A stretch of 64,000 bases of DNA from Pristiophorus japonicus (taxonomy: Eukaryota): contig NC_091986.1 in the NCBI RefSeq assembly GCF_044704955.1, positions 191,456,001 to 191,520,000 of the forward strand, written 5' to 3'. Positions 1,389 to 63,635 of the stretch are shown here, piece after piece. How positions within the stretch are numbered: the stretch's first letter is position 1; each line of letters begins with the position of its first letter. Made by a program: the position numbers and the translations under genes. The notes under the pieces are model-generated. The model saw only the letters and a list, made by a program, of their open reading frames with translations, had not been told where the DNA came from and made no database searches.

Positions 1389-1602
1389 TGTTATATATGT
1401 GGACTTGTATTTACTCTGTACAGCCACCAGAGGGCTCATCCTCTGGAGTCTCAAGGGATTATGGGATCCCTTGGGAGCACAGGTATTTAAGGAAGCTTCA
1501 CAGGCTGAAGAGGCACTCTGGAGACCTGCAACAAAAGACTACGGTCACACTTTACTTTGAGCTCACAGTATTCAGTCTGACTCTTTCTCCATACACTACA
1601 AC

Positions 1603-1612
1603 TGGCGACGAG
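1603..1612 (+). promoter_or_regulatory. Primer-binding site, complementary to a tRNA 3' end (probably tRNA-Ser(GCT))
   Basis: TGGCGACGAG starts 2 nt after the 5' LTR. The tRNA assignment rests on my recall of the vertebrate tRNA-Ser(GCT) end ...CTCGTCGCCA. Confidence 0.7.
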
Positions 1613-4600
1613 ATACAGATAGCAAACCCAAAGATGCAGAGAACAGTGGGCATCGTGGAGAAATTCTCGAAGGAAGATGATTGGGAAACTTTTGTGGAGC
1701 GACTCGACCAATACTTCATGGTCAACAGGCTAGATGGGGAAGAGAGTGCTGCCAAATGAAGGGCGATCCTCCTCACTGTCTGTGGGGCACCAACATATGG
1801 CCTCATGAAGAATCTGCTCACTCCAGTGAAACCCACGGAGAAATCATACGACAATTTGTGCACACTGGTTCGAGAGCATTTGAACCCGAAGGAAACCGTT
1901 CTGATGGCGAGGTACCGGTTCTACACCTACAAAAGCTCTGAAGGCCAGGAAGTGATGAGTTATGTCGCCGAGCTAAGACGCCTTGCAGGACATTGCGAAT
2001 TTGAAGGACATTTGGAGCACATGCTCAGAGACTTTATCGTACTTGGCATTGGCCACAAAACCATACTTCGCAAACTTTTGCCTGTAGAGACCCCAACCTT
2101 TAGTAAGGCCATAGCGATAGCCCAGGCATTCATTGCCACCAGTGACAATACGAAGCAAATCTCCCAGCACACAAGTGCTGCTACAAGTACTGTGAACAAA
2201 GTGATGTTGTTTTCGAATCATAACGTACAGGCCGTTCACACATACCTGCAACTACACGTCCGCAGATGTCTCAGAGTCCACCATCAAGGGTGATGAATGC
2301 AAAGCCATTAACACCTTGTTGGCGCTGCAGGGACGATCATCGTTACCATTCATGCCGATTCAAAGAGTATGTTTGCAAGGGTTGTGGAACAATGGGACAC
2401 CTCCAAGGAGCGTGCAGGCAAGCTGCAAAGTCTGTTAAACCTGCAAACCACCATGTTGCAGAGGAGGACAGATCAACAGAGGATCACAACGAACCAGAGC
2501 CTCAGATAGAGGAGGCAGAGGTACATGGGGTGCACACATTCACTACGAATTGTCCCCCAATAATGCTGAATGTTGAACTAAATGGACTCCTGCTGTCAAT
2601 GGAGCTAGACACGGGCGCGAACCAGTCCATCATGGGCAAAAAGACTTTCGAAAGGTTGTGGTGCAACAAGGCCTCAAGGCTAGTCTTTACTCCAGTTCAC
2701 ACGAAACTAAGAACTTACACGAAAGAACCGATTCCTGTAATCAGCAGTGCTACCTTAAAGGTCTTCTACGATGGAATGGTGCACAAGCTACCACTCTGGG
2801 TGGTACCGGGCGATGGTCCCATGCTGCTCGGCAGGAGCTGACTGGGAAAGATACGCTGGAACTGGGACGATGTCCGAGCGCTACCGCCTGCTGACGAGAC
2901 TTCGTGTGCCCAGGTCTTAAAAAATTTCCTTCGCTGTTCGAACCAAACATCGGGAAATTCCAAGGAGCGACCCATCCATCACAAGGCGAGAGCAGTACCA
3001 TATATGATGAGAAAGGGTAGAGATCGAGCTAGACCGGCTGCAAAGAGAGGGCATCATTTCCCCGATTGAGTTCAATGAGTGGGCCAGTCCTATTGTCCCA
3101 GTTCTCAAGGGAGACGGCACCGTCAGAATCTGTGGCGATTACAAAATAACTATCAATCGTTTCTCCCTGCAGGACCAATACCCACGACCAAAGGCCGACG
3201 ACCTCTTTGCAACGCTGGTGGGAGGAGAGACGTTCACGAAGCTGGATCTGACTTCAGCTTACATGACATAGGAACTGGAGGAATCATCGAAGGCCCTCAC
3301 CTGCATCAACACACACAAAGGTCTTTTTGTTTATAATAGATGCCCGCTTAGAATCCAATCGGCGGCGGCGATATTCCAGAGAAACATGGCAAGCTTACTG
3401 AAGTCCGTCCTGCACACAGTCCAGCTTGGTCACAGGTCGGAACACAGTCGAGCATCTGCAGAACCTGGAAGAGACTCTTAGTCGACTCAACCGCGTGGGG
3501 CTCAGATTAAAACGCTCGAAGTGCGTTTTCCTGGCACCTGAAGTGGAGTTCCTGGGAAGGAGGATTGCGGCGGAGGGCATCAGGCCGACCAACTCGAAGA
3601 CGGAGGCAATCGAGAACGCACCGAAGCCACAGAATGTGACGGAGCTGCGGTCGTTTCTGGGACTCCTGAACTACTTTGGTAACTTCTTACCAGGTCTCAG
3701 CACACTGCTAGAACCACTGCATGTCTTACTACGAAAAGGGGACGAATGGATTTGGAGCAAAAGCCAAGAAAACGTCTTTGTAAAAACGAGAAAATGGATA
3801 TGCTCAAACAAATTGCTTATGTTGTATGATCCATGTAAGCGTTTGGTACTAGCATGTGATGCGTCGTCATATGGCGTCGGGTGTGTATTGCAACAAGCTA
3901 ATGATTTCGGGAAACTGCAACCGGTTGCTTATGCATCCAGGAGTCTGTCGAAGGCTGAGAGTGCCTACAGCATGATTGAGAAAGAAGCATTAGCATGTGT
4001 CTATGGGGTAAAGAAAATGCATCAATACCTGTTTGGGCTAAAATTTGAATTGGAAACTGACCATAAGCCACTTATATTCCTGTTTTCCGAGAATAAAGGG
4101 ATAAATACCAATGCATCGGCCCGCATACAGAGATGGGCGCTCACGTTGTCCGTATACAACTACGCCATCTGCCACAGGCCAGGCACAGAAAACTGCGCCG
4201 ATGCTCTCAGTAGGCTGCCACTGCCCACCATGGGGGTGGAAATGGCACAGTCCACAGATCTAGCCATGGTTATGGAAGCATTTGAGAGTGAGCAATCACC
4301 CATCACTGCCCGGCAGATCAAAACCAGGACAAGCCAGAACCCCTTATTATCTCAAGTCGTGTGCTTCACAGGAGCTAGGCCAGTGTCCCAGTGGAATTGC
4401 AGGAAGAGTTAAAGCCGTTCCAGCGGCGCAAAGATGAAATGTCTATACAGGCAGACTGCCTTCTGTGGGGCAATCGAGTAGTGGTCCCCAAGAAAGGCAG
4501 AGACACCATCAATTACCTCCACAGTACCCACCCAGGCACCGTAATGATGAAAGCGATAGCCAGATCCCACGTGTGGTGGCCCGGTATCGATGCGGACTTA

Positions 4601-5198
4601 GAGTCCTGCATTCACAGATGTAATACATGCTCGCAGTTAAGCAATGTACCCAGGGAGGCGCTGCTAAGTTTATGGTCTTGGCCCTCCAAATCGTGGTCTA
4701 GGGTACATGTTGACTATGCAGGCCTGTTCTTGGGTAAAATGTTCCTTGTGGTTGTAGACGCGTACTCCAAGTGGATTGAATGCAAGATAATGTCGGCTAG
4801 CACATCCGCTACCACTACTGAAAACCTGCGGGCCATGTTTGTCACTCATGGCTTACCCGATGTCCTGGTGAGCGACAACGGGCCATGTTTTACCAGTGCT
4901 AATTTCAAAGAATTCATGACCCGTAACGGGATCAAACATGTCACATCTGCCCTGTTTAAACCTGCGTCCAATGGTCAGGCAGAGAGAGCAGTGCAAACCA
5001 TCAAGCAAGGCTTGAAGAGGGTAACTGAAGGCTCACCTATCAGACGCGCCTATCCAGTGACCTGCTTAGCTACCGCACGAGACCCCACTCACTCACTGGG
5101 ATCCCACCTGCTGAACTGCTCATGAAAAGAGCACTTAATACAAGGCTCTCGTTAGTTCACCCTGATCTACATGAACAGGTAGAGAGCAGGCGGCTTCA

Positions 5199-5304
5199 AC
5201 AAATACAGGATCTCCGACTTCAATCTCGTGACACATTTGCGCGATCATGGTAATGATCGCGCAAATGTGTCACGCGAGATTGAAGTCAATGATCCTGTAT
5301 TTGT
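5199..5304. repeat. About 50 bp inverted repeat (long hairpin, 4 nt loop) inside the element 1 integrase C-terminus
   Basis: 5199-5248 is the near-perfect reverse complement of 5253-5304. Confidence 0.93.
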
Positions 5305-6089
5305 ATTAAATTATGGACAAGGTCCCAAGTGGCTTCCCGGCACTGTCGTGGCCAAAGAGGGGAGCAGAGTGTTTCGGGTCAAACTTTCAAATGGACTCAT
5401 TCACCGGAAACACTTGGACCAAATCAAACTCAGATTCACAGACTATCCTGAGCAACCCACCTTGGACCCTAACCTTTTTTGATCTCCCAACATACACGTC
5501 AGTGGCAACCGGCACTACGATTGACCACGAAGCAGAACTCATCACCCGCAGCAGCCCTGCAGGGCCCAACACACCAGGCAGCAAAACAAGGTCAGCTGCA
5601 CAGCGAGGGCCCAACAAATGATTCAACGACAGCAGCTTTCACACCGAGACGATCAACCAGGGCAAGAAGGGCCCCAGATCGACTCACATTGTAAATAGTT
5701 ACACTATTGTATTGGGAGGGAGTGTTGTTATATATATGTGGACTTGTATTTACTCTGTACCGCCACCAGAGGGCTCATCCCCTGGAGTCCCAAGGGATCC
5801 CATAATCCCTTGGGAACACAGGTATTTAAGGAGGCTTCGCAGGCTGAAGAGGCACCCTGGAGACCTGCAATAAAAGACTATGGTCACACACTACTTTGAG
5901 TTCAGTGTTCAGTCTGACTCTTTCTCCATATACTACACATCACTTCCATGCAGCACTCTACATTCGGATCCCAACTGTTAATCAACCCTGTGCATCTTGG
6001 CAACATTATGCTTGCCTATCTTTTTCATATTTGAATTTAAGGTATCCAATTAGATGGAGAAAAGAGGCTGGCTGAATGGACTGTTATAC

Positions 6090-11050: not shown

Positions 11051-11054
11051 TAAA

Positions 11055-11512: not shown

Positions 11513-11513
11513 C

Positions 11514-13342: not shown

Positions 13343-13444
13343 ATGCCGAAATATTACGAAGACAAGGAGGAGGACAACCTAGCCTGCTCCGGGGTGAGGG
13401 AAGACCTGAGGAGCTGCTTGCTGCAACTCGACTGCGTGCGCAAG
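13343..13444 (+). CDS. COA5: Cytochrome c oxidase assembly factor 5, coding exon 1 (MPKYYEDKEEDNLACSGVREDLRSCLLQLDCVRK)
   Basis: Matches the recalled COA5/Pet191 N-terminus MPKYYEDK with a CX9C motif; phase-0 donor AAG|GTGTGA. Confidence 0.96.
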
Positions 13445-17387: not shown

Positions 17388-17729
17388 CAGGTTGAACCTC
17401 CCTTATTGGGAACCACCCCTCGTCCGGAACCATTACCGGCCACCGGGTGGCGCATGCGCAGAACTCCAACATGAACAAATTGAAGTCCTTCCTCGCTGCT
17501 GACTCCCGCAGTCGCTGGCTTGACCCCTCACTCCACCGCCCCCTCTTTCCCCCCTCCCCCCAACATATGATTTCTCTGCTGCACTCCCAGCCCCAAGCCA
17601 GCCAGCCACAATATCCCCTTGCTCAGTACCCGTACCATCCAATTTAACGTGACCACCCCTCGACTGGAAAAATCCCTTATCGGGAACAGGTCAGGTCCCG
17701 AGGGCTCCGGATAAGGGAGGTTCAACCTG
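17388..17729. mobile_element. Tc1/mariner (Tigger/pogo-type) MITE, 342 bp
   Basis: TIRs CAGGTTGAACCTCCCTTAT...ATAAGGGAGGTTCAACCTG; TA on the left, CA (probably mutated TA) on the right; non-coding interior. Confidence 0.88.
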
Positions 17730-18429: not shown

Positions 18430-20230
18430 CTGGAATGCATTGCCTGAAAGTGTGCTGGAAGCAGATTCAATAGTAACTTTCAAAAGGATATATAGTTGGA
18501 AGAGGAAACATTTACAGGGCTATGAAAAAGGGGTGGGGCAGTGCAACTAATTGCATTGTTTTTTCGAAGAGTGGCACATGCACGATGGGCCAAATGGCCT
18601 CCTTCTATGCTGTAAGATTCTGTAGGAGGCAAATAATTCAACTTTCTGGAAAAAATCAGCCAAAGTAAGAAAACACTCTTTTAGGGGCCACGGCAAATGG
18701 AATGGGCAGGGATCAAAACATTATTTGATGAAGTAACGGCGAGGGTTGTTGAGGGTACTGTGGTTGATGTTGTGTACATGTACTTTCTAAAGGCGTTTGA
18801 TAAAGTACCACATAATAATCTTGTCAGCAATATTAAAGCCCATAGGATTAAAGGGGCAGTGGCTGCATGTAAAAGGAATTGGCTAAGGGACAGAAAGCAG
18901 AGGTGAACATTGTTTTTCAGACTGGCGGGAAGTATTCAGTGGTGCTCCCCAGGGGTCTGGATTAGAATCACTGCTCTTTTTTACTTTAGTAATGAGCTGG
19001 ACTTAGTGAACGTAGACGGACTGGTGAAATGGGCAGGCACGCGGCTGATGAAATTTAAAATAATAATAACTTTTATTTTAAAACGTCCCAAGGTGCTTCA
19101 CAACAGGCTTACAAGGCATTAGATATTGACAAGGGAGAGGAAGAGAAAAAGCGGGAGAAGGAAGCGTAAAAGGCTCAGGTCTGAAGCGGTGTTAAAATGC
19201 GCATGCAGATAGACACAGGTGAAAAAAACTTTAAAAAAATGAAATTCAAATTACATTATAAATAATACAATATAGAGTATACAATAGTAAAATCAGAATA
19301 ATTAATTACAATTACATAATATACAATAATAAATTTAAGTTTAAAATTACAAAATCAGCAATTGAAGCAAATTAAATAGGTTTTTAGCTTTCTTTAACAC
19401 AAGTGTGAAGTGATTCATTTTGGTAGGAAGAATGAGAGGTGGTAATATAAACAAAATGGTACAATTTTAAAGGGAGTGCACGAACAGAGACTTGGGGATG
19501 CAAGTTCATAAATCTTTGAAGGTGGCAGGAGAAGCATATGGGATCTTTGGCTTTATAAATGGAGGCATGGAGTACACAAGTAAGGAGGTTCTGCTAAACC
19601 TTTATAAAACACTGGTTAGGCCCCAGCTGGAGTATTGTCGCTAATTCTGGGCACCACACTTTAGGAAGGTTGTCAAGGCCATGGAGAGGAGATTTATCAG
19701 AATGAAACTGTTTCCTGTGGCAGAAGGTTCAGTAACCAGAGGACACAGATTTAAGGTACTTGATAAAAGAACTAAAGGTGACATGAGGAAAAAAACATTG
19801 ATGCAGCGAGTTATGATGATCTGGAATGTGTTGTGTATCTATAAAGCATGCACTCCCATGTTCCGCCACCAGGGAGCACATCCCCTGACGACCCAAGGGA
19901 TCCCAGCATCCTTTGGGAGCACTGTATATAAGCCACCCCCCAAGGCCTGTTACTCACTCTGGAGTGTCTTAATAAAGACTGAGATCACTGTTACTTTAAC
20001 CTCCCTGTGTACAGTCTCATCTGTGATAGGAACACAGTAGAATGTACTGCCTGAAAGGACGGTGGAAGCAGATTCAGTAGTAACTTTCAAAAGGGAATTG
20101 GATAAATGCTTGAAGGAGAAAAATGTGCAGGGCTATGGGGAAAGAGTAGGGGAGTGGGACTAATTGGAGAGTTCTTTCAAAGAACTGGCACAGGCATGAT
20201 GGGATGAATGGCCTCCTGTGCTATATCATT
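18430..20230 (+). mobile_element. Cluster of old CR1 fragments, one split by a solo LTR
   Basis: VDVVYMYFLKAFDKVPH...NWLRDRKQR; TRGHRFKVL; CR1 sequence resumes after the LTR at 20045. Includes non-CR1 gaps. Confidence 0.75.
19829..20039 (+). mobile_element. Solo LTR of the element 2 family
   Basis: Homologous to 32524-32734; perfect 5 bp TSD GAATG (19824-19828 and 20040-20044); ends TG...TA. Confidence 0.95.
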
Positions 20231-20458: not shown

Positions 20459-20542
20459 GAAGGAAAGACACCAAAACAATGCTTAAAAGAAGGACACTGC
20501 AAGGCATTACAGCTTACTTTCTTTGAATGTAAAAGATCAATG
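20459..20542 (+). CDS. COA5: COA5 coding exon 2 (EGKTPKQCLKEGHCKALQLTFFECKRSM)
   Basis: Acceptor TAG|GAA, donor ATG|GTATGT, 84 nt, phase 0; second CX9C motif. Confidence 0.96.
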
Positions 20543-21071: not shown

Positions 21072-21113
21072 CTGGATAGCCGAACTCGGTTCAGAGGAAG
21101 AAAAGGATATTAG
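21072..21113 (+). CDS. COA5: COA5 coding exon 3 (LDSRTRFRGRKGY*)
   Basis: Acceptor TTTTAAAG|CTG; conserved C-terminal RFRGRKGY then TAG; total 75 aa. Confidence 0.96.
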   Translation: MDSRTRFRGRKGY

Positions 21114-32279: not shown

Positions 32280-35200
32280 ATTAACTGAGCATGAGCTGAT
32301 CAGAGAGTGCCAGCATGGATTTGTAAAGGGTAAGTCGTGTCTAATGAGCCTGGTTGAATTTTTTGAGGAGGTAACTAACGTGGTAGATAAGGGAGAGTAT
32401 ACGGATGTTAATTATATGGACTTCCAGAAGGCATGAGACAAGGTTACACATAAGAGGCTGTTAACAAAAATGAGATGCATGGAATTGGAGGCAACCTATT
32501 GCCTTCGATAGGGAATTGGTTAGTGTTGTGTATCTGTAAAGCATGCTCTCCCATGTTCCGCCACCAGGGAGCTCATCCCCTGAAGTCCCAAGGGATCCCA
32601 GCATCCCTTGGGAGCACTGTATATAAGCCGGCCCCTAAGGCCTGTTCCTCGCTCTGGAGTGTCTTAATAAAGACTGAGGTCACTGTTACTTTAACCTCCC
32701 TGTGTGCAGTCTCATCTGTGTTAGGAACACAATAACAAACCCAATGCAAAGATGCAGCAAACTGTGGGCATCCTGGAGAAGTTCTCGGAGGGTGAGGACT
32801 GGGAAGCCTATGTCGAACGGCTAGATCAGTACTTTGTAGCCAATGAGCTGGACGGAGAAGGAAGCGCTGCAAAAAGGAGAATGGTCCTCCTCACGGTCTG
32901 CGGGGCACCGACCTACAGCCTCATGAAGAAACTTCTGGCTCCAGTGAAACCCACAGATAAGTCGTATGAGGAGCTGTGTACACTGGTTCTGGAGCATCTT
33001 AACCCGAGGGAGAGCGTGCTGATGGCGAGGTATCGGTTCTACACGTGCCAGCAATCTGAAGGTCAGGAAGTGGCGAGCTACGTCGCCAAGCTAAGGCGAC
33101 TTGCAGGACAATGTGAGTTTGATGGCTACCTGGAGCAGATGCTCAGAGACTTTTTTGTACTGGGCATTGGCCACGAGACAATCCTACGAAAACTTTTAAC
33201 TGTAGAGACACCGACCCTCAGTAAGGCCATTGCGATAGCACAGGCGTTTATGTCCACCAGTGATAACACCAAACAAATCTCTCAGCACACAAGTGCTAGC
33301 AATGTTCATAAATTAACTGGAACTGTGTTTGCGAGCAGAAATGTACAGGGCAGAAACCACGAGTCTGCAACTGCCAGCAGGCCTCAGGTGACCCAGATGA
33401 CTGAGAGTCCACAACAAAGGATGAATGCAAGGCAATTCGTACCTTGTTGGCGTTGTGGAGGGTTCCATTCAGCCTATTCATGCCGCTTCAAAGGGTATGT
33501 TTGCAAGAGCTGTGGAACAATGGGGCAGCTCCAACGAGCTTGCAGATGAGCTGCAAGCTCTGCAAAACCTGCTAACCACCACGTGGCAGAGGAAGATCAG
33601 TCCATGGTGGATCAAAGTAATTTCGAGTCTCGGAGAGAGGAAGCAGATGCTAAAGTACATGGGGTGCACACATTTTCGACGAAATGTCCACCTATAATGC
33701 TAAATATAAAATTGAATGGCTTACCCATAGCCGTGGAACTGGACACTGGCGCTAGCCAATCCATCATGAGTAAAAAGATGTTTGAGAGACTGTGGTGCAA
33801 CAAGGCACTCAGACGAGCCCTGAGCCCCATCCACACAAAACTGAGAACGTACACCAAAGAGCTCATCACTGTCCTTGGCAGCGCCATGGTCACGGTCACC
33901 TACGAGGGCACGGTGCACAAACTGCCACTCTGGATTGTCCCGGACGATGGCCCCACACTGCTTGGAAGGAGCTGGCTGGACAAAATCCGCTGGAACTGGG
34001 ATGACATCCGAGCGCTATCACATGTCGATGAGGCCTCATGTATCCAGGTTCTTAACAACTTTCCTTCCCTTTTTGAGCCAGGCATTGGAAACTTTTCCAG
34101 GGCGACGGTGCGGATCCACTTGGTCCCAGAGGCACGACCCATTCACCACAAGGCCCGAGCAGTACCTCACATGATCAGGGAGAGAGTGGAAATCGAGCTG
34201 GACAGGCTGCAATGTGAGGGCATCATCTCCCCAGTGGAATTCAGGGAGTGGGCCAGCCCGATTGTTCCAGTACTCAAAAGTGATGGCACGGTCAGGATTT
34301 GCAGCGATCATAAAGTAACTATTAATCGTTTCTCACTACAGGATCAATACCCGCTATCTAAGGCAGATAACCTATTTGCGACGCTGGCAGGAGGCAAGAC
34401 GTTCACCAAGCTCAACCTGACTTCGGCCTACATGATGCAGGAGCTGGCGGAGTCTTCGAAGGGCCTCACCTGCATCAACACGCACAAGGGCTATTCATCT
34501 ACAACAGATGCCCGTTTGGAATTCGGTCGGCTGCAGCGATCTTCCAAAAAAACATGGAGAGCCTACTCAAGTCAGTACCACGCACGGTGGTTTTTCAGGA
34601 CGACATATTGGTCATGGGTCGGGACACCGTCGAGCACCTACAAAACCTGGATCGCATAGGGCTGTGGCTGAAGAGGTCGAAATGCCTCTTCATGGCAACA
34701 GAAGTGGAATTTTTGGGGAGAAAGATCGCGGCAGACGGCAGACGGCCCACAGATGCCAAGACAGAGGCTATCAGGAACGCACCCAGGCCACAGAATGTCA
34801 TAGAGCTGTGGTCGTTCCTGGGACTCCTCAACTATTTTGGTAACTTCCTACCGGGGTTAAGCACCCTCTTAGAGCCTCTACATGTGTTATTGAGTAAAGG
34901 TGAGAACTGGGTATGGGGAAAAAAACAAGTAATTGCTTTTGAGAAAGCCAGAAACATTTTATGCTCCAACAAGCTGCTTGTATTGTATAACCCGTGTAAA
35001 AGACTTGTGCTAGCATGTGATGCATCGTTGTATGGAGTTGGGTGTGTATTACAACAAGCTAACATTGCGGGGAAGTTGCAACCTGTCGCCTATGCCTCCA
35101 GGAGCTTGTCTAAAGCCGAGAGGGCCTACAGCATGATTGAGAAAGAGGCATTAGCATGTACGTTCGGCATAAAGAAAATGCATCAGTCCCTGTTTGGCCT

Positions 35201-38150
35201 CAAATTTGAGCTGGAAACCGATCACAAGCCTCTCATATCCCTGTTCGCTGAAAACAAGGGGATAAATACTAATGCCTCAGCCCACATACAAAGGTGGGCA
35301 CTCGCGCTTTCAGCGTATAACTATACCATCCGCCACAGGCCAGGCACCAAGAACTGTGCGAATGCTCTCAGTCGGCTACCATTGCCCACCACGGGGGTGG
35401 AAATGGCACAGCATGCAAACTTGTTGATGTTGGCGCAGCCCGCAGACTTGTTGATGGTCATGGAAGCATTTGAAAATGATAAATCACCTGTCACGGCCCG
35501 CCAGATTAGGACTTAGACCAGCCAAGATCCCCTGCTGTCCCGAGTAAAAAAAACTGTGTACTGCATGGGAGCTGGGCCAGCATCCCTGTTGAAATGCAAG
35601 AGCTAATCAACCCGTTCCAGTGGTGAAAGGACGAGCTGTCCATTCAGGCAGACCGCCTGTTGTGGAGTAACTGCATAGTGCTACCCAAAAAGGGCAGGGT
35701 GACAGACGTTCATCTCGGATCTCCACAGGACACACCCTGGTATAGTAATGATGAAAGCGATAGCCAGATCCCACGTGTGGTGGCCCAGTATCGACTCTGA
35801 CTTAGAGTCCTGTGTACGGCAATGCAGCGTGTGTGCTCAGTTGAGCAACGTGCCCAGAGAGGCACCACTAAGTTTGTGGTCCTGACCCTCCAGACCATGG
35901 TCCAGGATCCATGTCAACTATGTGGGCCCGTTTCTGGGTAAAATGTTCCTGGTGGTGGTGGATGCTTTTTTAAAATGGATTGAATGTGAAATAATGTCGG
36001 GAAGCACCGCCACCACCACCATTGAAAGCCTGAGGGCCATGTTTGCCACCCACGGCCTGCCTATCATACTGGTCAGTGACAACGGGCCATGTTTCATCAG
36101 TGCCGAATTTAAAGAATTCATGACCCTCAATGGGATCAAACATGTCACCTCGGCCCCGTTTAAACAAGCTTCCAATGAGCAGGCAGAGCGGGCAGTACAA
36201 ACAATCAAACAGAGCCTTAAACGAGTCACAGAAGGCTCACTCCAAACCTGCCTGTCCCGAGTACTGCTCAGCTACCGCACGAGACCCCACTCGCTCACAG
36301 GGGTGCCTCCGGCTGAGCTACTCATGAAAAGAACACTTAAAACCAGACTCTCACTGATTCACCCCAACCTGTATGATCAGGTAGAGAGCAGGCGGCAGCA
36401 ACAAAATGTAAACGATGGTCACGCCACTATGTCACGGGAAATTGATCTGAATGACCCTGTGTATGTGCTAAACTATGAACATGGTCCCAAGTGGATCGCG
36501 GGCATGGTGATAGCTAAAGAAGGGAATAAGGTGTTTGTAGTCAAACTAGACAATGGACAAATTTGCAGGAAGCACCTGGACCAAATTAGGCTGTGGTTCC
36601 CAGACTGCCCTGAACAACCCACAGCAGACACCACCTTTTTCGAGCCCACAACACGCACCCAAAGGATCAACGACACCATGCCGGACCAGGACTTCGAACC
36701 CATCACGCCCAACAGCCCAGCAAGGCCAGGCTCACCCAGCAGCCCTGCAGGACCAACAACACGCCAGCCCAGCGAGGGCAAGCCAACACACCAGAACAGA
36801 CATTTGTACCGAGGCGGTCCACCAGGGAAAGAAAGGCTCCTGACCGCCTCACCTTGTAAATAGTTTTCACTTTGACTTTGGGGGGGGGGGAGTAATGCTG
36901 TGTATCTGTAAAGCATGCACTCTCATGTTCTGCCACCAGGGAGCTCATCCCCTGAAGTCCCAAGGGACCCCAGCATCCCTTGGTATATAAGCTGGCCCCT
37001 AAGGCCTGTTCCTCACTCTGGAGTGTCTTAATAAAGTCTGAGGTCACTGTTACTTTAACCTCCCTGTGTGCATTCTCATCTGTGTTAGGAACACAATAGT
37101 TAGGAGGTAGGAAACAGAGACTGGAGATAATGGATATGTACTCAAATTGGCAGGATGTGACTAGTGGTGTGCCCCAGGGATTGGAACTGGGGCACATCTT
37201 TTCACTGTTTATAAATTACTTTGATGTGGGAATACAGAGCCATATATCTAATTTGGCTGACAACACTAAGTTAGGTGGCACAGTAAATAATGTAGCAGGG
37301 AGCAGAAAGTTGCAAAGGTACATTGATAAATTAAGTGAGTGGGCAAATCTATGGCAGATGGAGTTCAATGTGGGAAAGTGAGAAATCATTCACTTTGGAC
37401 CTAAGAAAGTTAGATCAAAGTATTTTCTAAATGGCGAGAAGCAAGGAACTGTGGATAAACAGAGCATTTTAGGGGCCTGTGTACAGAAATTACTAAAAGC
37501 TCATGGACAGATACAAAAAAATTTTAAAAGGTTAATGGAATGTTGGCCTTTATCTCAAGGGGGCTGGAATAAAAAGGGGTGCAAGTTATGTTACAGCTGT
37601 AAAGAGTTCTGGTTAGACCATCTGAAGTACTGCATTCGGTTGTGGACACCGCACCTCAGGAAGGTTATTGGCCTTGGAGCGGGTGCAGTGTAGATTCACT
37701 AGAATACCAGGGTTAAATTATAAGGACAGGTTGTATAGATTAGGCTTGTGTTCCCTTTTAATATAGAAGATCAAGAGGTGATCTAATTGAGGTGTTTAAG
37801 ATGATTAAAGGATTTTATAGGATAGATAGAGAGAAACTATTTCCTTCGGTGGAGTTCAAAACAAGGGGGCATAACCTTAAATTTAGAGGTAGGTCGTTCA
37901 GGGGTGATGTCAGAAAGCACTTTATACAAAGGATAGTGGAAATCTGGAACTCTCTTTCCCCCAAAAAGCTGCTGAGACTAGGTTAATTGAAAATTGAAAA
38001 TAACAAGATTGATAGATTGTTGCTAGGCAAGGGTATTAAGGGTTATGGAATCAATGTAGGTAGATTGAGTTAAAATACAGATCAGCTGTGATCTAATTGA
38101 ATGGCGGAACAGGCTGGCAGGGCTGAATGGCCTTCTCCCGTTCTTATGTT
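32280..38150 (+). mobile_element. CR1 LINE split by Gypsy element 2 (pieces 32280-32523 and 37104-38150)
   Basis: Removing the element and one TSD restores GGGAATTGGTTAGGAGGTAGGAAACAGAGA (NWLGGRKQR); then GVPQG, LADNTKL and the 3' tail. Confidence 0.9.
32524..37098 (+). mobile_element. Gypsy LTR retrotransposon (element 2), near full length, decayed
   Basis: LTRs 32524-32734 and 36896-37098; TSD GTTAG; G-run PPT; gag from 32752, LDTGA, RT FQDD at 34593-34604, RNase H and integrase ORFs; PBS absent. Confidence 0.97.
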
Positions 38151-39216: not shown

Positions 39217-42200
39217 TGTTATGTATGTAATAACTCGATAGACTGAATACTGTAAACTAACACAGGTCTGAACCCGGCTCTGCTTTATTCGGGCCCAAAG
39301 TGAATACATTACGTGATGGCTTGCCTTTTATACCTGGGCCGCACACATGTGTGTACAGCCCAATGACCTCCGACAGTCGCGCCACCTGGTGGCTAGTAAC
39401 CCCAAGCATACATACATGACAATATCCTCCTTTAAGATATTAGTAACAGTCTTTTTACAAATTGAGACGGTCCGGGGCGTTCCGCTCCCGAGTTGATCAT
39501 CTCCGTTCAACTCCAACCTTGGGCGAGCGTACTGAGTCTGTTATGACTGGGGGCTGGGTAGCCAACCTGATAGGAGTGGCAATGACCACGTCAGGGATTG
39601 AAAGTCAAGATTCATTGATGACAGCGGAGTCCTCTGATGACTGAGGGTAGGTTGGTTGGTCACTGATTGTGTCTTCCTCAGACTGTTCTGGTTCATCCCT
39701 ATGCCACAGCTTTATCTGATCAACATGTTTCCTGCATGTTTGCCCATTCTTGAGCTTGACAATAAACACTCTGTTACCCTCCTTGGCCATAACAGTACCG
39801 GTGATCCACTTGGGACCTTGACCATAATTTAGTACATACACAGGATTGTTAACAGAAATGTCGCGTGACACAGCAGCACGATCATGATACCACTGCTGAC
39901 TTTGACGTCTGTCTTTAACATGATCGTTCAAGTCAGGGTGGACAAGAGAGAGCCTGGTCTTGAGACCTCTCTTCATCAATAGTTCAGCAGGGTGACCCCG
40001 GTAAGTGTGTGGGGTCTTGTCCTGTAATTAAGCAATATGCGTGACAAGCGAGTCTGCAGTGAACCTTGAGTTACACGTTTCATACTCTGCTTAATGGTTT
40101 GGACAGCACGCTCTGCTTGACCATTAGATGTGGGTTTGAATGGTGCTGACCTCACATGTTTGATACCATTGAGTTTCATGAACTCTTGAAACTCCAGACT
40201 AGTGAAGCAAGGTCCGTTGTCGCTTACAACGATGTCGGGCAGACCATGAGTGGCAAACATGACACGAAGGCTTTCAATAGTAGCTGTGAATGTACTGGAT
40301 GACATGATTATACACTCTATCCACTTGGAATATGCATCCACCACAACTAAAAACATCTTTCCCAGGAAGGGACCTGCAAAGTCGATGTGGATCTGGACCA
40401 TGGTTTATATGGCCACGACCACAGACTCAACGGCGATTCCACTGGTGCTTTACTTAACTGCATGCAAGTGTTACACTGATGCACACATGATTTCAGATCA
40501 GAGTCAATTCCAGGCCATCATACATGAGACCTGGCAATGGCTTTCATCATGACAATACCGGGATGAGTGCTATGTAGATCATGTACAAATTTCCCTCTGC
40601 CTTTCTTAGGCATAACAACACGATTATCCCACAGTAAACAATCTGACTGAATGGATAGTTCGTCTTTGCAATGGTTGTAAGGTTTGGTCTCATCACCCAT
40701 TTGCTTGGGTATGGCAGACCAAGCACCACTAAGGACACAACGTTTCACAACTGATAATATCGGGTCCTGGCTGGTCCAGGTCTTAACTTTTTGAACCATG
40801 ACAGGGGTTCCTTCACTTTCAAAAGCATCCATGACTAACAGTAGGTCCACAGGTTGTGGCATCTCCATCTCCAGTGTGGGCAACGGCAGACTGCTCTGTG
40901 CATCGGCACAATTCTCGGTGCTAGGTCTTTGGCGAATGATATAATCATAGGCAGATAATGTCAGCGGCCACCTCTGGATGTGGGACGATGCATTTGTATT
41001 GATACCTTTGTTTTCCAAAAACAATGAAATGAGTGGCTTGTGATCTATTTCCAGTTCAAACCGAACACCAAATGATGCATCTTTTTAACCCCATATACAC
41101 AGACTCATGCTACTTTTTCTACCATGCTGTAGGCTTTTTCCGCCTTTGACAAACTTTTAGAAGCATATGCAACAGGTTGTAGTTTACCTGACTCAAAAGC
41201 TTGTTGGAGCATGCAACCAACTCCATATGACGAAGCATCACAGGCCAATATTAGATGCTTACACGGATCATAATACACCAGCAGCTTGTTAGAACAAAGC
41301 AGATTAGTAGCTTTCTCAAAAGCTCTGTCTTGAGATGCACCCCAAACCCAGTTGTCGCCTTTTCTTAGCAGCATGTGCAGTGGCTCTAATAAAGTGCTCG
41401 CGGTAGGAAATTACCGAAGTAGTTGAGTAGACCAAGGAACGAACGCAGCTCCGTCACATTCTGAGGCTTGGGTGCATTTTTGATGGCCTTGGTTTTCGAG
41501 TCCGTAGGCCTGATGCCGTCAGCAGCAATTTTCCTCCCCAGGAATTCAACTTCCGGTGCCATGAAGACGCACTTCGAACGTTTCAATCTGAGTCCCACTT
41601 TGTCCAGACGATGTAGAACCTCTTCCAAGTTGTTCAGATGTTCAGCGGTGTCACGATCTGTGCACACGACGGTTCTAGGGACACACTTCAGCAGACTCTC
41701 CATGTTCCTCTGAAATATGGCTGTAGCCGAGCGAATTCTGAAAGGATACCTGTTGTAGATAAACATTCCTTTATGAGTGTTGATGCGCGTAAGTTTCTTC
41801 GACGTCTCGACCAGCTCCTGTGTCATGTAGGCCGACGTCAAATCCAGTTTAGTGAATGACTTCATCCTGGCTAGCGTTGCAAACAGGTCATCAGCCTTCG
41901 GTAACGGGTATTGATCCTGCTTCGAAACTCGGTTGATCATAACCTTGTAGTCTCCCCAAATCCTGACAGTGCCATCATTCTTCAACACAGGAACAATGGG
42001 GCTGGCCCATTCGTTAATTTCGACCGGTAATATGACCCCTTCACACTGGAGTCTGTCTAGTTCAATTTCGACCTACTCCCTCATCATGTACAGAACCGCC
42101 CGAGCTTTATGATGGACGAGTCTTGTATCCAAGTCCACCTTGGCTCCCGTGAATTTTCTGATGCCTGGTTCAAACAGCGAGGGGAACTTGCTCAGCACAC

Positions 42201-45200
42201 GAGCACATGGAGTATTATCCTCCTCCGACAATGCTTTGGTATCGTTCTAATTCCATTTGATTTTCTCTAGCCAATTCCTGCCAAACTGCGTGGACCATTG
42301 CCTGGAACAATCCAAAACGGTAAATTATGAAATGCACCATCATACGACACCTTGACTACTGCACTGCCAATCACCGTTATGACTTCTTTAGTGTACGTAC
42401 GCAATTTGGCATTAGAAACATAGAAAATTGGTGTAGGAGCAGGCCATTCGGCCCTTCGAGTCTGCACCATCATTCAATATGATCATGGCTGATCATGCGA
42501 CTTCAGTACCCCACTCTTGCCTTCTCTCCATATCCCTTGACACCTTTAGCCATAAGGGCCACATCTAACTCCCTTTCGAATATATCCAACGAACTGGTCA
42601 CAACAACTTTCTGTGGTAGAGAATTCCATAGGTTACAATTCTCTTGGTGAAAAAGTTTCTCCTCATCTCGGTCCTAAACGGCTTACCCCTTATCCTTAGA
42701 CTGTGACCCCTGGTTCTGGACTTCCCTAACATTGGGAACATTCTTCCTGCATCTAACCTGTCCAATCCCGTCAGAATTTGATATGCTTCTATGAGATCCC
42801 CTCTCATTCTTCTAAATTCCAGTGACTATAAGCCTAGTCGATCCAGTCTTTCTTCATATGTCAGTCCTGCCATCCTGAGAATAAGTATGGTGAACCTTCG
42901 CTGCACTCCCTCAATAGCAAGAATGTCCTTCCTCAGATTAGGAGACCAAAACTGCACACAATACTGAAGGAGTGGTCTCTTCAAGGCCCTGTGCAACTGC
43001 AGCAAGACTTCCCTGCTCCTATACTCAAATCCTCTCGCTATGAAGGCCAACATGCCATTTGCTTTCTTAACTGCCTGATGTACCTGCATGCCTACTTTCA
43101 ATGACTGATGTACCATGACACCCAGGTCTCTTTGCACCTCCCCTTTTCCTAATCTGTCACCATTCAGATAATAATCTGCCTTCCTGTTTTTGCCACCAAA
43201 GTGGATAACCTCACACTTATCCACATTATACTGCATCTGCCATACATTTGCCCACTCACCTAACCTGTCCAAATTAACCTGCAGCCTCTTATAGCATCCT
43301 CCTCACAGCTCACACTGCCACTCAGCTTAGTGTCATCTGCAAACTTGGAGATATTACATTCAATTCCTTCGTCTAAATCATTAATATATATTGCAAATAG
43401 CTGGGGTCCCAGCACTGAACCTTGCGGTACCCCACAAGTCACTGCCTGCCATTCTGAAAAGGACCCGTTTATTCCCACTCTTTGCTTCCTGTCTGCCAAC
43501 CAGTTCTCTATCCACGTCAATACATTACCCCCAATCCCCTATGCCTTAATTTTGCATACTAATCTCTTGTGAGGGACCTTGTCAAAAGCCTTTTGAAAGT
43601 CCAAATACACCACATCCACTGGTTCTCCCTTATCCACTCTACTAGTTGCATCCTCAAAAAATTCTAGAAGATTTGTCAGCATGATTTCCCTTTCATAAAT
43701 CCATGCCGACTTGGACCGATCCTGTCACTGCTTTCCAAATGCGCTGCTATTACATCTTTAATAATTGATTCCAGCATTTTCCCCACTACCGATGTCAGGC
43801 TAACCGGTCTATAATTCCTTGTTTTCTCTCCCTCTTTTTTTAAAAAGTGGGGTTACATTAGCTACCCTCCAATCCATAGGAACTGATCCAGAGTCCACGG
43901 AATGTTGGAAAATGACCACCAATGCATCTACTAATTCTAGGGCCACTTCCTTAAGTACTCTGTGATGCAGACTATCAGGCCCTGGGGATTGATTGGCCTT
44001 CAATCCCATCAATTTCCCTAACACTATTTTCTGACTAATATGGATTTCCCTCAGTTCCTCCTTCTCGCTAGACCCTCGGTCCCCTAATATTTTCGAGAGG
44101 TTATTTGTGTCTTCCTTAGTGCAGACAGAAGATTGACTGGACTTAGCTTAGGCCTCACAGCTTTAGTATCCCACAGCTTGTCGAATGACCTCTGGCTCAT
44201 TATTGATTGACTCGCACCTGTGTCCAATTCTATCGGTACCGGCACACCATTAAGTTTCACATTAATCATTATCGGTTGGCTCTTTCTTAGGAACGAATAC
44301 AGTCCATACACTTCCTCCTCTGGTATCTCGGGTTGCATATCCAGATCCGTGCTATATTGGTCATCATCCTCCACATGACGTGTCGTAGCGCGCTTGCTCA
44401 GTTGCGGACACATGCGCTGGAGATGCCCCAGTCGCGAACAGCCTTTACAAATGTACTGTTTAAACCTACACTGATGATTGCCCCCACAACGCGGTGAAAT
44501 CGGATTCATTCCCATTGGCGGACTTTGGGCAGCCACAGGTTTCGCATACGCAGTCGTGTAGGCCCTGCCATACGCAGTTCTGCCAAACGACGACATAATC
44601 TTGTTTACAGTACTTGCCGAGTTCCGATTTTTCAATGATATCTGCTTTAAGTTTTTGTCCGTCATCATGCATGCCTGGGCAATCGTGATGGTCTTGCTCA
44701 AATCCAGCATCTCCGTCGCAAGTAGCTTACGCAGGATCACGTCATGGTTGATGCCGATTACAAAGAAGCCCCTCAGCATGTCTCCCAATGCGTTTTCGAA
44801 CATACACGGTCCAGCTAGACGTCTTAGGTCGGCAACGAATTCCGACACATCCTGGCAATCAGAACGAACGTGCTTGTAGAATCGATATCGTGAGATGATG
44901 ATGCCTTCTTCTGGTTTGAGATGGTCACGTACCAGAGCACACAATTCCTCATAGTCCTTGTCCGTTGGACTTGCAGGTGAGAGAAGATTCTTTATGAGTC
45001 CATAAATTTTCGGACCACAAACCGTGAGGAAGACCGCCCTGCACCTAACTGCGTCAGTGGGTTCCTCCATTTTGTTGGCCATGAAGTACTGGTCCAGGCG
45101 AGCTACAAAATCTGCCCAGTCCTCTCCCTCCACGAATCTCTTGAGAATTCCAATTATGCTCATTTTTGCATGCGAAGGTTCTTAAGTTACCTTGTCACCA

Positions 45201-45396
45201 AATGTTATGTATGTAATAACTCGATAGACTGAATGCTGTAAACTAAAACAGGTATGAACCTGGCTCTGCTTTATTTGTGAATACATTACATGATGGCTTG
45301 CCTTTTATACCTGGGCCGCACACATGCGTACAGCCCAATGACCTCCGACAGTCACGCCACCTGATGGCTAGTAACCCCAACCATATGTACATGACA
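39217..45396 (-). mobile_element. Gypsy LTR retrotransposon (element 3, different LTR family), interrupted by a CR1
   Basis: 5' LTR 45203-45396, 3' LTR 39217-39421 (TG...CA); TSD AAATG; PBS TGGTGACAAG; PPT AAAGGAGGA; gag-protease ORF 44084-45163; RT, RNase H and integrase fragments. Confidence 0.96.
42414..44130 (-). mobile_element. Younger CR1 LINE nested in the protease region of element 3
   Basis: RT motifs KSPGPD-like and [10 protein letters not shown]; the Gypsy frame KLSPVN|AKLRTYTK rejoins across it with ATT duplicated. Confidence 0.94.
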
Positions 45397-54622: not shown

Positions 54623-54625
54623 TTG

Positions 54626-57874: not shown

Positions 57875-58076
57875 TGTTATGTATGTAATAAAGGTACAAA
57901 CTGAGTACTGTTTAACTGAACAAGGTGCAACCTTGTTTCTGCTTTATTACGGCCCAAAGTGCCTGACTCTCAAAATGGCTGGCCTTTTATACAGAGCAGC
58001 ACCATGTGCGTGCTGCTCAATGGCCTCCAACAATGACACCATCTGGTGGTTACAAACAGCATGTACATACATGACG
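57875..58076 (-). mobile_element. Solo LTR related to the element 3 family
   Basis: Shares TGTTATGTATGTAATAA...CATACATGAC with 39217-39421; TSD TGTGC/TGTGA (4 of 5). Confidence 0.88.
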
Positions 58077-59601: not shown

Positions 59602-59930
59602 ATAAGAACATAAGAAATAGGAGCAGGAGTAGGCCATATGGCCCCTCGAGCCTGCTTTGCCACTTAGTAATATCATGGCTGATCTGATCATGGCCTCAAC
59701 TCTACTTTCCTGCCCGTTTCCCATAACCCCTGACTCCCTTATAGTTCAAGAATCTGTCTATCTCAGCCTTGAATATATTCAATGACTTGGCTTCCACAGC
59801 TCTCTGGGGTAGAGAATTCCAAAGATTCACGACCCTCTGAGAGAAGAAATTCTTCCTCCTCTCCGTCTTAAATGGACGACCCCTTATCCTGAAACTATGT
59901 CCTCTAGTTCTAGCTTCCCCCATGAGGAAC
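59602..59930 (-). mobile_element. CR1 3' fragment
   Basis: ARTRGHSFRIRGRPFKTERRKNFFSQRVVNLWNSLP plus tail. Confidence 0.9.
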
Positions 59931-60180
59931 AAAGTTGATCACGGGTGTCTTGAGTTTGAGTATCGATTTTAAGGAAATTAGGCTTTTCTTTCTAAAAGAG
60001 ACTTTCAAATTTTCAAGATTATAATGGGAATTGATAAGTTTAGCCAGACAAATATCAGAAAATAGGTATGAATTGAATGGCTGAAATTCTGCCCATCCTG
60101 GTTTATTCATCCAGAAAGAATTATAGTTTCCCCCCATCACAGCAAGCAGCAGATTCTGAAATGATTCTCTGGGATTCACC

Positions 60181-61035
60181 TCCATTACCCTTGCACCAGG
60201 GAGGCAACATACCATCCTGGAGTCTCGTTTGCAGCCTCAGAAACGCCTAGCACAATAGCTCACGCTTTTTCCTGCCCTGTGCAGCAGAGTCACCCCTGGT
60301 GCCATGAACTTGGCTGCTGCTGCCTTCCCCTGATGAGCCATCTCCCCAACAGTATCCAAAACGATATATCTGTTTTGGAAGGAGGTGACCGCAGGGGACC
60401 TCTGCACTACCTACCTTCCTTCCCTTGCTCTTCCTGATGGTCACCCATTCCCTATCTGCCTGTGTAACCTTTACCTGCGGTGTGACCAGCTCACTAAATG
60501 TGCCATCCACGACGTCCTCAGCATTGCGGATGCACCAGAGTGAATCCATGCGCAGCTCCAGTGCCGCAATGCGGTCCGACAGGAGCTGCAGCTGGACACA
60601 CTTCCTGCACACATAGTAGCCAGGGACACTGGAAGTGTCCTGGACTTCCCATATAGCACAGGAGGAGCATGACTCAGCTCTGGGCTCTCCTGATGACTTA
60701 ACCCTTAGATTAACTTAATTTGACAACAATGCCAAAGGTTACCTACTGATAAGAAAAGAAAAAGAAAAAATACTCACCAATCACTTACCAGCTTGGCTGT
60801 GCGGTCACACTTCAATTTCTTTTTACTTCTATTTTGCCTTTTCTCCCTGTACCAGATGGCTCCTCCAACTGCCGCTGGCCTTTTATAGGCCTCGAGCCTC
60901 CCGCTGGCTGCTCCTCCGACTGCCACTGGCCTTTCATAGGCCTCGATCCTCCTACTTCCACTAGCTCCTCCTGATCTGTCGCTGGCCTTTTATAGGCCTC
61001 GATCCTCCCACTCCCGCTAGCTCCTCCGACTGCTG
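60181..61035 (-). mobile_element. CR1 5' end: 5' UTR plus ORF1 N-terminal half (Zn finger, leucine zipper, start of esterase domain)
   Basis: SCSSCAIWEV...CRKCVQLQLLSDRIAALELRMDSL...VCCLPGARV, characteristic of CR1 ORF1. Confidence 0.85.
60860..61033 (-). repeat. Tandem monomers of 51-56 bp (3 plus a partial) in the CR1 5' UTR
   Basis: Units start at 60860, 60911, 60965 and 61021; the full units contain GGCCTTTYATAGGCC. Confidence 0.9.
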
Positions 61036-61416
61036 ATCCACTCCAACGGGGAAATCCTAATTACTGGTGCAGAGTTGGGCTAATTGTCCAGCAATGACGC
61101 CTGAAAGTTTTGCAGCTGATGCAAACAGGCACAGGGGCGAGAGGATACCTGTACCTCTTAAAAGCTATATTAGGCTGGAAATAAAGCATTTTAGGATTTT
61201 GTCCATGAAAAGTATTGTTCATGAAAAGTTTGGAGGAAGCGGTTGCTATATTGAGGGTTTTATTTATTTTAGTTTTGCATCTATGTGGAACATAAGCTTA
61301 AAAAAACATCTGTACAGAAAGTGGAGGAAAGGGGGAAAAAAAACCTCATTACTAGAACCTTCCAGGAATTAATGTGCATGAACATCTATGGAATAAATAA
61401 TGAGACCTTCTGTTTG

Positions 61417-61568
61417 CTGATTGGCGCATTGGCCTACCTGATACTAGGCATGCTTCTGCACACGCTGCGCCGCTGGGATCCGTGGGTCACTACACTGCCC
61501 TCTACTACGCAGCATCTGCCAGCAAGTCCTGGAAGGAGTGTTCCCCCCCCCCCCCCCCTCCACATCAG
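61417..61568 (+). other. Candidate alternative first (or internal) exon
   Basis: Two inverted CCAAT boxes at 61417-61432, local CpG enrichment, perfect donor CAG|GTAAGT at 61568/61569. Confidence 0.5.
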
Positions 61569-62639
61569 GTAAGTGCGCATTTGGTTTGGATGCCGGCATT
61601 GTAATCCGTCGGTACGCCGCTAATCTCAAAATCCAGGCCAATATTTTACTGTAGTATTTGTCAATGTTAAAAAGAAAGTAAATGCTAGTCTTGCTGGCTC
61701 CTTGTTTTGTATTTCTTTTCTGGAAGTTGACTGGTTTACCTATTTGCATTGTTTTACATATTGGTTTCCTGCAGTAAAATATTTCAATATGAATCATTCT
61801 AAAAAATTTGGAGACTAAATTTGTTGCTAGTAAGAATCACTGTAACTAAAGCTTTCTCACATTTGATTATTTTTTAAAAAAGATACAAATTTATAATGAC
61901 TTGATTTGAATTATAAAGCTGTCATTAATTCCATGCACCGTACAATTTCCTGATGATGGCTCATCCAGGCAGTTTCACATCCTAACTGATGATAAAGCAC
62001 TTTAATGGTCTGTACCATACATAATTTCTTCCATACATTTTTAAATGGTTAACAAAAATGCAATAAAGTTCAATAATTAATAACGATACAGCTAATATCA
62101 TTTCAGCAAAGTCCTCACGACTTCTCCTTTTTGTGTCTTCATACCTATATCCTTTTACCTGAAAAGGCACGGCAGTTAAAGGAATAAGTTCTTCATGTCT
62201 ACTGTCACCATACTTATGTGGCAAGGCTGGTTCTGCTTTTCTCTGTCCCAAGTGCAGGGAGCCTTACCTCGTGGCGTGGCTGAGAACTGTCAACATTTTT
62301 TTTGAAAGCAGTCAGTGCTGAAATTAAAACTTTAGCTTTAAAATGCTACGTACCAGATCAACCTCCTATTGTATTTTACTCCTCCCCTGATACTTTCCTC
62401 CCCATTTGAGTTTTGTCTTCACCATTCTGAATGTGCGACCTCCTTCCAGGCATTTGTAACCTGTTGATAAAAAGTTCATTGGGTTTGAATGAGTTGTTAA
62501 ATTGTCTGTCTATTCAATTGGATGTGAAAGATTCCATTGCACTATTCAAAGAAAGAGCAGGGAGTTTTCCCAACAGTCTAGTTCTGAAGGCATTTAGGAT
62601 CAAGTGTAGTGTCGGATGTAGTAGTAAGCCTCAAGTATA

Positions 62640-63635
62640 GAATCTTGAAGCACAGAAAACCATTTGGCCAGTCTTGCCTGTGGCGGCTCTTTGAAGCCCT
62701 GCAGTCTTCCGTTTCAAGTATATATCCAATTCCCTTTTGAAAGTTACTATTGTATCTGCTTCTAACTTTCTGGCAGTACATTCTAGATCATAATTTGCTG
62801 TGTTTAATTTTTTTTTTAAATTCTCCTCTGCTCCCCTTTGGTTCTTGTGCCATTTATCTTAATTCTGTGTCCTCTGTTTACTAACCCACCCACCAGTGGA
62901 AACAGTTTCTTCTTTATTTTCTCTTGAAACCCATTATAACTGTAATGACTCAAGAGTCTGGTTACTGTAAACTCAGGTGCAACCTGATCCATCTTTATTC
63001 CAGCCCAAGAGTGCCAGCATGACAGACACCCAGCTTATATACAGGTGACCAAGCACACATGCCACATGCGTTCAGCCCGATGACCTCCAACCGTGGCGCC
63101 CTCTGGTGTCTGGTGACCCCCAAGCATTCTCGCATAACAATAACTTCTACCAAATCTCTCCTTAACCTTAATAGCTTCTCTATTCTCTCAACATAACTGA
63201 AGTCCCTCATCCCTGGTATTCTGTCTAATCTCATCTGCTCCCTCTCCAAGGCCTGGACCTCCTTTAAATGTGGTGTCCAGAATTGAACACAATTCTCTAG
63301 CTGAGGCATAACCAATGATTTCTAAAGATTTATTTACCATAATTTCCTTGCTTTTTGTACACTGTTTCTATTTATAAAGCCAAGGATCCCATTTTTAGGC
63401 AGCTTTATGAACTTGCCCTGATTTTGTATGTGAAATCCTGTGACTCTCTGTTCCTGCACCCTCTTTAATATTGTTTTATTTAGTTTCTATTGCTGTTATT
63501 CATTCATCTTCCCCCTGCCTCCCCCCCCACCCACCACCACCAAATGTATAATTTCTCACTTCTCTGTTAAATTTCATCTGCCATGTGTCTTTGCATTTCA
63601 CCAATCTTTCACTCACTCTGAACTCTGCTGTTATC
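62640..63635 (-). mobile_element. Old CR1 fragment containing a solo LTR
   Basis: PQLENCVQFWTPHLK, WQMKFN. Confidence 0.8.
62941..63139 (-). mobile_element. Solo LTR (fourth family, distantly related to element 3 LTRs)
   Basis: TG...CA ends; perfect TSD ATAAC (62936-62940 and 63140-63144); TATA-like and AATAAA signals on the minus strand. Confidence 0.9.

Follow-up and report, generated by a model that had tools for sequence, protein, structure and literature searches.

A conserved CTCF-like site in the U3 region of Mag-type Gypsy long terminal repeats of a shark genome

Introduction

The spread of CTCF sites by transposons is known; why an element should carry such a site is the open question addressed here. 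It is raised by a 64 kb stretch of contig NC_091986.1 (positions 191,456,001 to 191,520,000; hereafter the window, to whose positions the coordinates below refer) in the 5.92 Gb genome of the shark Pristiophorus japonicus. The window contains three full elements (E1, E2 and E3) and three solo long terminal repeats (LTRs) of a Gypsy clade, and each of the nine LTRs bears a CTCF-like word in its U3 region. A preliminary description of the window took these words for oriented insulators or loop anchors dispersed by the elements. The observation is real and extends to the whole Mag-type clade. As to what the word does, we lean, at slightly better than an even chance, to the reading that it is a conserved U3 element selected by the transposing elements themselves, a predicted site for CTCF or CTCFL (BORIS) that likely activates their own TATA-initiator promoter. 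The 15 diverged families of the clade constitute a natural substitution series, which shows selection on the site as the lineage transposes and neutrality once a copy has inserted; its geometry points to a non-architectural activator role of CTCF over insulation.

CTCF-like cores in the LTRs of the window

The nine CTCF-like 14-mers of the preliminary description are all present, each on the sense strand of its LTR, and their reported distance of 27-37 nt from the LTR 5' end is exact, with 35, 35, 37, 37, 37, 29, 29, 27 and 30 nt preceding the cores. Scored with a reconstructed JASPAR MA0139.1 count matrix (column sums 908-913), they are as follows.

1424-1437, plus strand: core of the E1 5' LTR, 15.0 bits
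5763-5776, plus strand: core of the E1 3' LTR, 15.2 bits
19866-19879, plus strand: core of the solo LTR in a COA5 intron, 14.2 bits
32561-32574, plus strand: core of the E2 5' LTR, 9.8 bits, A at a conserved G position
36933-36946, plus strand: core of the E2 3' LTR, 9.8 bits
39379-39392, minus strand: core of the E3 3' LTR, 23.2 bits
45354-45367, minus strand: core of the E3 5' LTR, 13.3 bits
58036-58049, minus strand: core of the solo LTR at 57875-58076, 15.4 bits
63096-63109, minus strand: core of the solo LTR at 62935-63139, 20.7 bits

A matrix scan against background, one of the checks that the preliminary description had proposed, gives 9.8-23.2 bits with this matrix (p 4e-5 to 7e-9). 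Each core is the best match of its own LTR, all nine have p<1e-4, and all are within the 19 top matches of the window. When each LTR was resampled 150 times under a first-order Markov model, its observed score was reached 0-6 times; the two weakest cores are those of family 2 that score 9.8 bits (6/150 and 2/150), because they have A where the matrix has 98% G. The earlier count of nine LTRs in four families stands as to the LTRs, but these represent six insertions and five LTR families (the LTRs with cores ending at 58049 and 63109 cluster separately) of one clade. Matrix matches of 13-18 bits also occur outside these LTRs, at 17437 (+), 23191 (-), 23224 (+), 24816 (+) and 30199 (+); the first is in COA5 intron 1 and the pair near 23.2 kb is inside a repeat.

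A single Mag-type clade and its families

The domain order gag, protease, reverse transcriptase (RT), RNase H and integrase between two LTRs, obtained by Pfam searches of the window open reading frames and a tblastn map of E1-E3, identifies the elements as Ty3/Gypsy. Their RT-RNase H regions are ~70-76% identical among the three full elements, and independent origin of the site in four families was therefore rejected in favor of a single clade. The protein matches (42-58%) are K02A2.6-like proteins of fishes, a frog and others, a type linked to Mag; the protein tree described below contains no named SURL or Mag reference. The primer-binding site of E1 is matched by tRNA-Ser(GCT), one of three tRNA loci being called by ARAGORN; no tRNA gene was found in the window itself. 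The LTRs are short, and their ends fit the Mag C motifs TGTNATRT and AYANAACA, family 2 beginning with TGTTGTGT, one letter different. Mag C (SURL-like) Metaviridae LTRs (PMC3601003) are likewise short, with these termini and AATAAA; the difference is that CTCF and insulators have no occurrence in the main text of that paper.

Genome-wide there are 49,123 occurrences of the primer-site pattern (control 824). An unbiased sample was formed from 77 consecutive matches between 3.35 and 12.3 Mb of contig C1; the 23 that head the list of 100 lie in a duplicated end region and were left out. An LTR pair was found in 41 of these 77 loci. Within 200 nt before the primer site, sense matches to the CTCF matrix are present in 45/77 loci at p<1e-4 and 40/77 at p<1e-5, against 4 and 2 antisense matches and Markov expectations of 6.8% and 0.5%, respectively. 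Together with the window and loci selected by RNase H, the sample yields 15 families whose proteins are ~44-79% identical; five self-blast "LTR pairs" among L011-L070 (L016, L038, L042, L044, L064) were excluded as simple repeats or partial. An outgroup family of the same genome (17 loci, ~35-40% identical) lacks a sense site and has only a weak antisense word, mostly of 3.4-7.8 bits with one of 11.3; no match exceeds 5.6 bits in two unrelated LTR families (6 loci). One 3.1 kb member of the clade (L155, G000:C1:5041200-5045200) has gag and protease and almost no RT or integrase, and is likely non-autonomous.

Conservation and pattern of change

Per-column conservation, the other check proposed, was determined from an alignment of 48 copies from the 15 families. 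Between-family identity is highest in the core 11-mer, at 0.79, compared to 0.75 for the TATA stretch, 0.42 for the median column and 0.33 for the 15 nt upstream of the core. Alignment-free word counts agree: CACCAG is found in 11/15 families and CCACCA in 10/15, with only AATAAA and GGTCAC/AGGTCA ahead of them.

The letters that vary are mainly those that CTCF tolerates. In 134 LTRs with sites picked through family alignments, core position 11 is A/G (55/45), position 12 is G/T (67/32), a transversion tolerated by the CTCF matrix, and position 3 is A/G, like the matrix; information content follows that of the matrix with a Spearman coefficient of 0.77 over 19 positions. The real between-family changes retain a mean of 15.4 bits, while the same transitions and transversions put at random core places give -0.2, and the real mean was reached in 0/2000 replicates, a nominal figure. 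Median site scores are 9.8-23.1 bits in 13 of the 15 families. At the level of sequence, the claim of a CTCF-like U3 site maintained by this Gypsy lineage is thus borne out by the best-conserved stretch in 15 families, matrix-like variation and strict orientation.

Two variants of the site deserve mention. One LTR family (L148-L151, L154, L163, L166; e.g. G000:C1:5842977-5843046) has two forward CTCF-like cores 58 bp apart, scoring ~16 and 19-24 bits, with 1,521 exact genome matches (control 0); it resembles the clustered double sites that CTCF and BORIS are reported to occupy in germ cells (PMC10832218). In a young subfamily (L018, L022, L043, L046, L084) an 11-bp deletion across the site has restored a CTCF-like word of 14 bits, now closer to TATA by one helical turn.

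Position of the site relative to the promoter

The promoter features of the LTR are exemplified by the E1 5' LTR.

1445-1448, plus strand: GGAG box, 7 nt past the core
1450-1475, plus strand: inverted repeat (stem-loop) between the GGAG box and TATA
1484-1490, plus strand: TATA box, 60 nt past the core start
1514-1518, plus strand: initiator-like CA(C/T)T, whose A (1515) lies 31 nt past the TATA T and is the inferred transcription start

TATA and the initiator A are 31 nt apart in nearly all copies, the standard TATA-initiator spacing. The family medians of the distance from core start to the LTR 5' end are 28-93 nt (standard deviation 21.7), those to TATA 48-69 nt (6.0) and those to the LTR 3' end 160-186 nt (5.5), the site having been found in 70/90 LTRs at 135-190 nt from the 3' end. 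The same position had been claimed for the site in every LTR: its orientation is indeed strict, but a constant 5'-end distance holds only in short LTRs, where the site is 27-38 nt from the edge, and in long-LTR families it is 57-94 nt or more from the edge and still beside TATA. A rule of fixed 5'-end distance was accordingly rejected for this genome, in which the site tracks TATA and the initiator. The core-TATA distances fall into classes of 29, 38, 48.5, 52, 59.5 and 68, a hint of helical phasing (p 0.04-0.07 for six non-independent classes).

Six window LTRs have an intact initiator, and in these the core center lies 75-90 nt (~84) before the inferred start. CTCF-dependent mouse promoters have a site ~60 bp upstream in direct orientation in 90% (bioRxiv 10.1101/095802), and forward mouse sites at a median of ~79 bp upstream activate directly, with BORIS able to substitute (PMC12695661). 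The likeness lies in a single forward site, 60-80 bp upstream in the mouse, "forward" in both studies being assumed to mean the JASPAR sense strand; the difference is that those are housekeeping promoters with demonstrated binding and dependence, whereas the LTR promoter is of TATA-initiator type and its site is predicted. It is this layout, a forward site at fixed spacing from TATA and initiator as in the mammalian promoters activated by CTCF or BORIS, that suggests an activator. In the catshark CTCFL is testis-biased (PMC7471279). A 5' LTR that is new or free of methylation might thus be bound by CTCF or CTCFL ~84 nt ahead of the start, and the bound factor would keep the short promoter open and aid RNA polymerase II loading in germ cells. 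Master copies with the site would be transcribed more, so that selection would act on transposing lineages and not through the host, and oriented sites, one or two per insertion, would remain as a by-product, most of them probably methylated and unbound.

Several points weigh against such an activator. The matrix is a reconstructed one and the families share ancestry, so that the p-values are nominal, and the mouse parallel depends on the assumption about strand just given. In families 3 and 5 of the clustering the site is one G short, with medians of 2.8 and 3.6 bits and 0/36 ungapped copies at p<1e-4; they account for 19/77 loci and are as abundant and young as the others (LTR-pair identity medians 93.5 and 94.7), from which it follows that a strong site is not required. 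The GGAG box, 7-10 nt downstream of the core, is near-invariant and conserved like the core, and lies outside the CTCF matrix, and the stem-loop could by itself fix the spacing, with no need of an activator. Among strong-site families, 35 comparisons of a 5' LTR with its 3' partner revealed no CpG protection near the site (18/35 decayed near it vs 26/48 away, p=0.83, 83 CpG pairs, modest power), and lasting germline occupancy of inserted copies is therefore not seen. Finally, relatives from other hosts keep the distance to the LTR 5' end (36-40 nt) and not that to a TATA-like box, which favors the alternative considered next.

Relatives from other hosts and the LTR edge

A metagenome scan with an 18-protein alignment gave 69 loci, among them 25 distinct elements with a delimited LTR. 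A clear sense site is present in 2/25, both at LTR position 36 (L183/L188, 20.7 bits; L180/L181, 17.3 bits), and two more were recognized by eye (L186/L187, 11.7 bits, position 37; L207, 12.2 bits, about 40). Two further matches, one within the integrase region of L211 and one beyond the LTR of L231, were dismissed as false. In a midpoint-rooted FastTree tree of 107/112 rows, L183, L186 and L207 group with bony fish, lungfish and frog proteins and L180 elsewhere, the clade of this genome being separate.

These four relatives favor an edge barrier, that is, an element-selected CTCF site that shields the LTR from flanking heterochromatin or methylation instead of serving as a position-specific activator. 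The edge distance of the short LTRs in the shark fits the same picture, as does the mouse IAP motif, which lies at the U3 5' end and whose binding is inverse to methylation (PMC7898769). The long-LTR families, however, shift the site away from the edge and retain its spacing to TATA, and the LTR pairs show no CpG protection near it; an edge barrier is thus regarded as unlikely.

Neighboring U3 features

The inverted repeat before TATA (1450-1475 in E1, 32587-32612 in E2 and matching U3 stretches) is kept across families despite differing sequence, with folding z<=-2 in 11/22 family rows, compared to 2/22 for the core region and 1/22 after TATA. Its center in families 1 and 2 resembles what we take to be the Staf/ZNF143 consensus. 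The GGAG box or the stem-loop could be part of a second U3 function and could determine the spacing.

It may be asked whether the core itself belongs to such a function, as one half of a 25-nt bipartite U3 element (CCAC...GGAG) recognized by another factor or forming a reverse-transcription hairpin, its CTCF likeness being incidental. The GGAG box is invariant like the core, a CTGNTGG-like stretch mirrors the 5' half, with full pairing in one family, and the 30-mer folds with z<=-2.4 in clustering families 1, 3 and 11; moreover two families thrive with a non-CTCF version, and the adjacent stem-loop shows structural constraint on U3. In most families, however, the core region does not fold better than its shuffles, and a hairpin is unsupported there as the explanation of the core. 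The pairing register also differs between families, the would-be loop retains RKGG with the A/G and G/T split of CTCF, and the distant relatives have the CTCF word without a mirrored arm. The bipartite element is accordingly considered rather improbable.

The CTCF core is quoted as CCNNNAGGGGGCGC, with an optimal upstream module TGCAATACCC at a defined spacing, in PMC10287918, where middling cores are found to depend on the upstream site. The word TGCACTCYC, reported earlier upstream of the core in two of the three family-2 copies, is there, starting 17 nt before the core, and the third copy reads TGCTCTCCC. One match is the following.

19849-19858, plus strand: upstream-module match of the solo LTR in the COA5 intron, 7/10 to TGCARTRCCC at -17, the regular Spec-seq library spacing

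The module has 6-7/10 letters at exactly -17 in window family 2 and 5-8/10 in one weak-core family, with one equal score at -14; it is absent in most of the 11 families scored. Its presence beside the weakened family-2 core is consistent with the finding on middling cores in PMC10287918. For the ZF1-dependent extension (40A, 43G and 46C of PMC9410893), A and G agree and the third letter is G, in a register guessed by setting the midpoint at matrix position 10.

Abundance of the site and its fate after insertion

The word CCACYAGRKGG followed by AATAAA 84-100 nt later occurs 78,615 times in the genome (one double count among 100 listed matches), compared to 893 in the opposite orientation, and CCASYAGRKGG occurs 201,031 times (reversed control 89,608). 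At least 39% of exact core words (78,615/201,031) are thus in the LTR layout, one per 75 kb, and this is a floor because only 3/9 window LTRs match the pattern. That the elements disperse oriented sites is therefore true as sequence, with at least 78,615 copies. The placement of one of them in COA5 intron 1 is also correct: the coding exons were confirmed, and the solo LTR at 19829-20039 lies inside that intron. Its core, at 14.2 bits, has no special feature.

Whether the host keeps such copies was assessed from the divergence of the same 35 LTR pairs, a test of the average copy. Non-CpG mismatches number 22/461 in the core (4.8%) and 298/5997 elsewhere (5.0%; p=1.0), which argues against insulators. 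Since the core decays at the neutral LTR rate, selection on the site acts in the lineages that transpose, and the average copy is neutral for it once inserted; neither host selection nor CpG protection after insertion was seen in these pairs. Both LTRs of an element share one orientation, so that no convergent pair is formed. Hence insulators or loop anchors kept by the host after insertion, the COA5 intron 1 copy included, are very improbable in spite of the abundance of oriented sites, the overlap of lamprey Gypsy repeats with CTCF peaks (odds ratios 58 and 24; PMC5504073) and the well described anchors derived from transposable elements in mammals, given neutral decay, unprotected CpGs, tandem LTRs, a site tied to TATA and the initiator, an unremarkable COA5 copy and the unbound state of most motif-bearing IAP LTRs (PMC7898769). 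A small exapted subset of copies may nevertheless exist.

Known systems and implications

Other elements and viruses offer partial parallels. In mouse IAP LTRs a CTCF motif is present at the U3 5' end in ~10% of copies, most of them unbound (PMC7898769). The shark site is alike in its place in U3 near the LTR 5' end, its spread by transposition and the probably unbound state of many copies; it differs in that IAP is an endogenous retrovirus with the motif in ~10% of LTRs and with binding established by chromatin immunoprecipitation (ChIP), whereas the site of the Gypsy clade is a predicted one, found in 13/15 families with turnover among tolerated letters. Two LTR/Gypsy repeats of the lamprey, #743 and #697, show enrichment in CTCF ChIP peaks (PMC5504073) and likewise represent vertebrate Gypsy elements carrying CTCF sites, but clade, position, orientation and cross-family conservation are absent from that account. 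CTCF also acts on the LTR promoters of an integrated element in bovine leukemia virus, where it represses the 5' LTR and favors the 3' LTR promoter (PMC8989512), so that CTCF need not have an activating effect. A literature search, incomplete for shark CTCF ChIP-seq and the lamprey supplement, found no account of CTCF-site conservation in the LTRs of Mag or shark Gypsy elements.

More speculatively, and to be held as tentative, CTCF or CTCFL may be a dedicated, helically phased germline promoter activator of vertebrate Mag-type Gypsy elements, its site kept or regained at ~36 in at least three lineages, in which case these elements would be the largest single source of CTCF motifs in the shark genome, contributing at least 39% of its exact core words, and the host would be forced to mask oriented sites by the tens of thousands. 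The coexistence of strong, weak and doubled sites in one genome makes the role of the site directly testable. For work on the shark three-dimensional genome it is of consequence that a large share of predicted CTCF motifs is LTR-borne and may be silent.

Elements and gene of the window

The elements and the COA5 gene are arranged as follows.

1389-5937, plus strand: E1, full Ty3/Gypsy Mag-type element, gag-protease-RT-RNase H-integrase, broken
1389-1600 and 5728-5937, plus strand: E1 LTRs, 89.5% identical
1603-1612, plus strand: E1 primer-binding site TGGCGACGAG, complementary to the 3' end of tRNA-Ser(GCT)
13343-13444, 20459-20542 and 21072-21113, plus strand: COA5 coding exons, from PF10203 pieces and splice sites
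19829-20039, plus strand: solo LTR of family 2 in COA5 intron 1, on the strand of the gene, target duplication GAATG
32524-37098, plus strand: E2, full element of family 2, LTRs beginning at 32524 and 36896 and 95.5% identical, target duplication GTTAG
39217-45396, minus strand: E3, full element of family 3, LTRs 93.8% identical, target duplication CATTT
57875-58076, minus strand: solo LTR, core at 58036-58049
62935-63139, minus strand: solo LTR of a fifth family, core at 63096-63109, 3' end uncertain

Target duplications and LTR ends were found for E2, E3 and two solo LTRs; no target duplication was found for E1 or the 63 kb solo LTR. E3 is interrupted by a repeat insertion at ~42430-44130, and E2 has lost its primer site by deletion, the segment downstream of its 5' LTR (32731-32760) being without one. 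Elsewhere in the genome, a COA5 match without introns at G000:C21:78259817-78259994 is likely a processed copy.

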